The notes under the pieces were generated by a model that saw only the letters and a program-made list of their open reading frames with translations, ran no database searches and was not told where the DNA came from. The translations under genes and the position numbers were made by a program. DNA of 64,000 bases from a virus, in the IMG/VR virus record IMGVR_UViG_3300031730_000002, positions 21,866 through 85,865 of that record. One strand, 5' to 3'. Shown here piece by piece: positions 59,194 to 59,571 of the stretch; position 1 is the stretch's first letter; every line of letters begins with the position of its first letter.

Positions 59194-59571
59194 TCATGTG
59201 TTTCCTTTGTCAATGGTGAGAGTGAGAGTCAGCGAGTCGCCCGGCAAGAGGTGCGGTGATTGGCCGTTGTTGATCGGCAGCAGCAAGCCGCCGGCCAGCA
59301 CATGCGTCACCGTGCCCCAGCTGCCGGTCGGGCTCGGGAACCACACAGTGTCCTGCCCTTCGACGTAGGGCACGCGGGCGTAGCCGTTCCCGCTGATCTC
59401 CTTGCCGTCAGGGCCGTAGAGCGCGAGGAAGGCGTCTGAGCGCGGGAAGCTGTCGCCGCCCACGAATCTCGGCTTGGGCAGCCACAGCGGCATGAGGCTT
59501 GTAGGCCGCACGAACGCTGGCGCTGCTGCAGCCGCCAGCATGGCGGTGAGGAAGCTGCGGCGAGGGATCAT
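59194..59571 (-). CDS. Twin-arginine-leader protein carrying a truncated tail-protein domain
   Basis: RRSFL leader; EISGNGYARV...FPSPTGSWGTVTH. Confidence 0.7.
   Translation of the reverse strand: MIPRRSFLTAMLAAAAAPAFVRPTSLMPLWLPKPRFVGGDSFPRSDAFLALYGPDGKEISGNGYARVPYVEGQDTVWFPSPTGSWGTVTHVLAGGLLLPINNGQSPHLLPGDSLTLTLTIDKGNT

Follow-up and report, generated by a model that had tools for sequence, protein, structure and literature searches.

The window, i.e. the whole stretch of 64,000 nucleotides that was analysed, corresponds to positions 21866-85865 of a virus record in IMG/VR that is 85.9 kb long and was judged complete. Structural genes occupy the plus strand and stop near 14.2 kb; the rest is a long minus-strand block of mostly small genes. 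ORF 59194..59571 sits in this non-structural block, on the strand opposite to the structural genes, and with its stop codon included corresponds to a 125-aa protein (P0001; N-terminus MIPRRSFLTAMLAAAAAPAFVRP). It is the sole ORF in the whole 85.9-kb genome that combines an N-terminal RR-x-F-L leader with a hydrophobic stretch. The features of the gene, and of the tail gene with which its product is compared below, are collected in Table 1.

The ORF is joined to its neighbours by ATGA overlaps at both ends: its ATG overlaps the stop codon of an upstream 65-aa gene, and its TGA the ATG of a 78-aa gene downstream. The directly upstream gene (59571-59765, minus strand) encodes a coiled-coil protein. 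Two genes upstream in the same ATGA-coupled string (59735-59944, minus strand) is the gene of a small protein whose two hydrophobic helices are IAFGIALGAFITGMAGVFAGW and GLTVCVATGIIGAALSG. The two-helix protein, the coiled-coil protein and the ORF product may together constitute a small cassette directed to the envelope. Within 2 kb, a known phage family is matched by one neighbour only, the 186-aa protein encoded at 57606-58166 on the minus strand (phrog_4273, unknown function, E 1.3e-34).

An exhaustive HMMER search of 1.84 billion representatives recovered full-length homologues of 115-133 aa, 42-54% identical to the ORF product, at E 3e-21 to 7.5e-13. Given these homologues and the gene overlaps, the ORF is therefore a real gene. 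The closest homologues (P0002-P0005) lie on contigs of 1-4 kb, and the family is rare, with one member per cluster. Word-indexed protein searches with the ORF product returned the protein itself only, and megablast found no GenBank phage matching the ORF region. The analysis revealed no promoter-like site, and terminator-like sites did not exceed those of shuffled sequence; early expression is read from the position of the gene only. Among sequencing runs, no RNA run was listed with the sequence; the only run that contains it is a root metagenome, its probable source.

Table 1. Coordinates of the gene, of the parts of its product and of the tail gene used for comparison.
Feature	Coordinates	Strand	Basis
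Whole gene	59194..59571	-	125 aa; ORF listing, ATGA overlaps, homologues
Twin-arginine-type leader, residues 1-24 (MIP-RR-SFL, 15-residue h-region ending AAPAFV, R22-P23-T24)	59500..59571	-	PF10518 E 0.001
Post-signal motif SLMPLWLPK, residues 25-33	59473..59499	-	S25, L26 and P32 invariant, M27 nearly so
Low-confidence linker, residues 34-41	59449..59472	-	AF2 pLDDT <50 for residues 32-43
Trimmed Gp80 / whisker-bead beta-sandwich core, residues 42-120	59212..59448	-	hhalign, AF2, VIA-align
290-aa tandem (2x) Gp80 bead protein, tail module	10722..11594	+	PF23140 E 7.6e-58, two stretches

The leader carries a Tat-type motif close to the N-terminus (residues 3-9, P-R-R-S-F-L-T), behind an n-region of only 3 residues. 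The h-region (FLTAMLAAAAAPAFV) is Ala-rich and weakly hydrophobic, with a mean Kyte-Doolittle value of ~2.0 by our own count; Pro-Ala stands near its end, and the basic c-region residue R22 follows. Thus, four of the five classical features of a Tat signal are present, the missing one being a usable A-x-A cleavage site: the ORF product has V-R-P, with Pro at -1, where most relatives have V-R/K-A. The A-P-A at residues 17-19 is a possible alternative signal-peptidase site. Because V-R-P replaces V-R-A, the protein would probably either stay tethered by its leader or be cut at A-P-A.

Compared with the bacterial Tat signals described by PF10518 and TIGR01409, the leader shares the RR-x-F-L, an h-region ending in Pro and the basic c-region residue. 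The first-pass annotation had called it a Tat-type leader; the features bear this out, whereas the curated cut-offs are not reached, since PF10518 scores 19.3 bits against 22.7 and TIGR01409 does not match the ORF product (three relatives score 15.2-16.1 against 16.7). Feature neighbours in the ESM Atlas include genuine Tat-signal clusters with scores of 0.79-0.87, which serve as a lead only. Judged from these features, export is the best-supported role for the leader.

The body of the protein resembles the beads of the Gp80 type, which comprise gp80 of Ralstonia phage GP4 (8JOU, PF23140), the Bas63 whisker protein gp5 (9MT4) and A1002 gp40/gp41. The ORF body has in common with them a beta-sandwich core and the motifs SG-x-GYAR, FP-x-x-TG-x-WGT-V/I-TH and GD-x-L. 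When a profile of 14 aligned sequences of this kind, hereafter mini-beads, was compared by hhalign with 62 canonical Gp80 monomers from IMG/VR, the probability was 99.5% (E 1.5e-22, 80 columns). Query residues 42-118 pair with canonical positions 24-121 of 130, and the mini-bead is therefore devoid of the N-terminal helix and the last strand. The dimer helix at canonical positions 1-23 has no counterpart; the RR leader and the linker stand in its place, and the loops are shortened relative to canonical Gp80. Unlike the Gp80-type beads, the ORF product thus lacks positions 1-23 and the last strand, carries an RR leader instead and is encoded in a non-structural setting.

On the single ORF product, PF23140 scores 17.2 bits against a cut-off of 27 (E 0.0065) and covers profile positions 41-89 only; it matches 11 of the 14 aligned relatives, with E values up to 0.1 and a best value of 1e-11. 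The motifs are invariant across the 14 mini-bead sequences. An AlphaFold (AF2) model built from the 14-sequence alignment reaches a pLDDT of ~90 over residues 46-120. In comparisons by VIA-align, the top solved match to this model is GP4 gp80 (8jou_a, Z 7.0, rmsd 2.6 A over 83 residues), followed by the Bas63 whisker bead (9mt4_M, Z 6.0), all other structures giving Z of at most 3.2. The structure search of the ESM Atlas put a Gp80 cluster first (TM 0.46). Foldseek of the model against the PDB found nothing significant, GP4 gp80 being second at E 0.6, and a profile search of PDB sequences gave no match. The ORF body is nearly a whole domain and, according to the model, is predicted to fold.

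In virions, beads of this type dimerise by coiling their N-terminal helices, and a 'rope' strand runs through the bead groove, completing an incomplete sandwich; contact of the beads with LPS has been suggested, not shown (PMC12609058, PMC13730344). Because the dimer helix is absent, the ORF body is probably monomeric. Since it is the rope that completes the sandwich of canonical beads, a lone mini-bead core may expose its groove.

The first-pass annotation had described the body as a copy of the phage's own tail domain, 48 kb from the tail genes. The distance of ~48 kb is correct, and the resemblance to tail gene 10722-11594 holds beyond chance: BLASTP aligns 71 residues at 31% identity (E 1e-5), and the Smith-Waterman score against domain 2 of the tail gene has z = 9.4 and was reached by none of 500 shuffles. 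Both proteins are of the Gp80 kind, the tail protein by its two PF23140 stretches and the ORF product by the profile comparison. The tail gene comes just after a J-like tail-tip gene (7846-10710, matching central tail fibre J families); its two halves align with each other, and its product matches 8jou_a by phmmer at E 9.9e-11. The genome contains four Gp80-like stretches, namely a 142-aa monomer, the two halves of the tail gene and ORF 59194..59571. The 142-aa bead adjoins an Ig-like 108-aa protein encoded directly after the portal gene, a 421-aa protein coming next. The Ig-like and bead genes lie at ~7.6-8.4 kb of the record, outside the window (L058 1111-1875), and the order portal, Ig-like protein, 142-aa bead is the collar-whisker layout found in Bas63 and GP4.

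The notion of a copy did not hold. Within one multiple alignment, the identity of the ORF body to the three other Gp80 domains of its own phage is 29%, 24% and 27%; to the 62 Gp80 monomers from IMG/VR phages that are unrelated it is 25-34%, with a median of 30%, and to other leader-bearing mini-beads 38-44%. The body is no closer to its own Gp80 domains than to foreign beads, which indicates family-level homology and not local duplication; a recent duplicate of the tail gene is rejected on these figures. On the sequence comparisons, the mini-bead is an old separate lineage. What remains of the design proposed at first is an RR-type leader joined to a tail or fibre module within the non-structural block. 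The idea of a self-copied decoy is weakened because the body is not specially like the phage's own Gp80 domains, and also because it lacks the bead-dimer helix; a bead that is not modelled on the phage's own protein argues against a self-decoy.

Most of the 53 HMMER matches align with ORF residues 1-40 only, at 50-75% identity, and their bodies are unrelated. Across 31 leader-sharing proteins (the ORF product and 30 others), R4, R5, P18, S25, L26 and P32 are invariant, and an R or K at the position of R22 is near-universal in relatives. The family pattern can be written as RR-[SG]-F-L ... AAPA-[IF]-V-[RK]-x-x-SLM-x-[IL]-[WY]-V/L-P. A first, narrow DNA pattern of the leader gave chance matches only in IMG/VR; a degenerate one gave 34 matches, 30 of which are true leader genes. 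In 185,579 bacterial and archaeal genomes the degenerate pattern was matched three times, one match being true. This cellular match is contig L095 (JALNYW010000004.1, 41.9 kb), which was assigned to a Patescibacteria MAG but probably derives from a phage and was mis-binned. Near absence from cellular genomes distinguishes the leader family from bacterial Tat signals.

No leader was seen by tblastn in 50,697 GenBank phage records, and no cultured phage carrying it was found among them; tblastn of the ORF product against GenBank phages gave one weak body match, and the same search with two leader-bearing relatives gave no leader match. A second metagenome scan recovered bacterial Tat leaders only. 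By profile search, the family comprises at least 180 protein clusters, all of 83-171 aa and unnamed or 'hypothetical'; overall, the leader was seen only on small proteins of 70-184 aa. It is near-invariant, essentially phage-only and present in hundreds of proteins from uncultured phages, and no description of it was found in the literature.

Selection on the leader acts at the protein level. Among 22 distinct IMG/VR leaders, amino-acid identity is 0.70 and identity at codon positions 1 and 2 is 0.74, compared with 0.36 at position 3, which points to old purifying selection on the peptide. Conservation at the DNA level, as for a recombination site or an RNA element, is rejected, third codon positions being saturated. 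The best-conserved part is not the surroundings of the RR but the segment that spans the predicted cleavage site and continues beyond it, AAPA-[IF]-V-[RK]-A-[ES]-SLM-[KP]-[IL]-[WY]-VP (AAPAIVRAESLMKIYVP). Ordinary Tat signals differ in this respect from the leader family, in which identity stays at ~70% even though the GC content of the phages spans 37-64%, and in which ~10 residues beyond the cleavage site share in this conservation. Conservation so far beyond this site exceeds what export alone explains and suggests that the leader peptide might have a second reader besides the export machinery. Apart from the leader genes themselves, no conserved phage-encoded partner was found in 30 leader loci, and no phage TatA was detected either in the ORF's genome or in five further records with the leader. 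The leader would thus most simply be read by a host machine. The leader gene has no fixed place: some copies are in replication regions, and in one related locus it lies between terminase and portal.

The sister bodies that can be assigned to a nameable family are trimmed pieces of virion-protein families, on proteins of 113-184 aa. They include the pectate-lyase fold PF12708 (first ~50 positions of 213, ~20 clusters), LamG PF13385 (~8 clusters), the phage tail Collar domain PF07484 (positions 7-40 of 57) and, below cut-off, the lambda-type portal PF05136 (positions 276-331 of 354). Of the signature motifs of the virion-protein families, these bodies keep the most conserved ones. The ORF body, which is nearly a whole domain, differs from many of them. 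A tblastn search of 24 distinct sister bodies, each against its own locus (at most 14 kb), found no paralogue at E < 0.01; in two other complete genomes a large ORF contains a weak body paralogue, at E 0.01 and 4e-4. Fibre and whisker beads are now among the modules joined to the leader family.

Mini-beads are not confined to the phage-type leader. RR leaders are present on 12 of the 14 aligned mini-beads, and on none of the 62 canonical full-size beads. The phage-type leader is carried by P0001-5, P0008 and P0014, whereas P0013, P0018, P0035, P0039 and P0042 have unrelated, ordinary-looking RR leaders; two of the 14 have no RR leader. The leader of P0013 (122 aa, RPJ39993.1, from a Planctomycetaceae MAG) is of the host-like Tat type and shares 50-60% of its residues with the leaders that bacterial aldo-keto reductases carry on L220 and L222. 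The occurrence of the same trimmed bead behind unrelated RR leaders indicates that it is the twin-arginine signal as such that is kept, and not one particular peptide; this speaks for export itself being what selection maintains.

Because tailed phages build their particles in the cytoplasm, an export-type leader on a virion-type module is unexpected. The reading that we favour, with a probability of about 0.4, is that the ORF product would be an accessory protein sent by the host Tat pathway to the periplasmic face of the inner membrane. Residues 1-33 would be a phage-type twin-arginine signal, most likely read by the host Tat pathway, and would bring the rest of the protein to the periplasmic side of the inner membrane. 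Residues 42-120, a Gp80/whisker bead core without the dimer helix, would there act as a probably monomeric binding module and might bind a component of the infected-cell envelope. Such binding could alter how the cell surface handles phage particles, either as superinfection exclusion or as protection of the progeny from debris; for this last step we argue from analogy only.

The analogy is with T5 Llp (PMC9586334), HK97 gp15 and T4 Imm/Sp, which are likewise small non-structural proteins sent to the envelope by an N-terminal signal. The likeness is functional: these proteins have Sec or lipoprotein signals or membrane helices, and no relation in sequence or fold to the ORF product.

Export is favoured by the features of the leader, by the protein-level selection on it and by the finding that RR leaders of two unrelated kinds precede one presumably foldable body. 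A host machine as the simplest reader also fits, as does the small two-helix membrane protein encoded two genes upstream. Several points stand against it. The leader scores below the PF10518 and TIGR01409 cut-offs and is conserved beyond the needs of export. Tat normally passes folded proteins only, whereas many sister bodies are fold fragments. It is hard to see what a capsid or portal piece would do in the periplasm, and the groove that a lone bead core may expose is a further difficulty.

A second explanation, which is unlikely though worth serious attention, is that the product acts at the cytoplasmic face of the membrane. The leader would be a membrane tether or a chaperone-binding tag, and the monomeric bead would occupy the sites by which rope strands and beads bind each other; bead or rope proteins, most plausibly those of co-infecting phages, would be held at the membrane, or the assembly of beads on the rope would be poisoned. 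Loss of the dimer helix with retention of the rope-accepting sandwich core suits such a role (PMC12609058), as does a body for which the phage's own beads are no nearer relatives than those of unrelated phages. In the sister proteins, too, the leader precedes signature-motif segments of virion proteins that oligomerise, among them portal and capsid-like pieces, whose activity is confined to the cytoplasm, and the leader occurs only on small proteins. However, the RR at the N-terminus together with the positive-inside rule would place the body outside, an h-region of 15 residues is on the short side for anchoring the protein stably, and mini-beads behind unrelated, ordinary-looking Tat leaders point to export and not to a special tether.

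It is improbable that the bead is a decoy for a defence sensor, mimicking a virion epitope and, ahead of late protein synthesis, either titrating the sensor or drawing it off to the membrane or the Tat translocon. The first-pass annotation had offered titration of a defence sensor as one option, beside receptor masking and superinfection exclusion. The retention of the most conserved virion signature motifs in leader-family bodies would fit this, as would the place of the gene within the non-structural block. Tat can export complexes in which one subunit only bears the signal. A decoy should nevertheless resemble the phage's own protein, and the ORF body is no nearer to it than to foreign beads; moreover, the known sensors of phage structural proteins are mostly cytoplasmic. 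We know of no sensor of Gp80-type beads.

There is little to recommend the ORF product as a virion component, i.e. a minor monomeric bead that caps or ends whisker or tail chains, with the leader removed, used in assembly only, or the protein joining the particle at lysis. Its fold is that of a structural bead, one related locus has the leader gene between terminase and portal, and the first ~30 residues of the A1002 bead gp41 are missing from the map, possibly by cleavage (PMC13730344). Against this stand the location of the gene among small non-structural genes, on the strand opposite to the structural genes and 48 kb away from them, the missing bead-dimer helix and the presence of the same leader on many unrelated bodies.

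Just as improbable is a universal phage 'address tag', in which the leader would connect the host Tat translocon with trimmed modules by which virion proteins oligomerise. The tagged bead would clamp its rope or bead partners and hold them at the membrane, or export them by 'hitch-hiking'. Since the bead is no more like the beads of its own phage than like foreign ones, the clamped partners would plausibly be those of co-infecting phages. If this were true, it would represent a mechanism of interference between phages without a described precedent.

A decaying remnant or chance ORF without function is barely conceivable: the single-sequence Pfam match is weak (E 0.0065) and the family is rare, mostly on short contigs, but full-length homologues at 42-54% identity, motifs invariant across 14 sequences, a confident fold prediction, translational coupling to the neighbours and protein-level selection on the leader all speak against it.

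Returning to export by the host Tat pathway, its confirmation would mean that phages encode a large unstudied class of proteins acting in the host envelope via Tat. The leader could then also serve as a compact export tag.

In P0048 (125 aa), a mini-bead body follows a CxxC...CxxC N-terminus. A 476-aa protein encoded at 32763-34193 of the window (minus strand) has relatives of 518-525 aa in four or five leader-bearing IMG/VR loci (L063, L067, L074, L077, L082). The metagenomic protein P0049 (144 aa) looks circularly permuted, the FP..SGNWGTITH motif preceding the EVTGNGYKRVTF motif.
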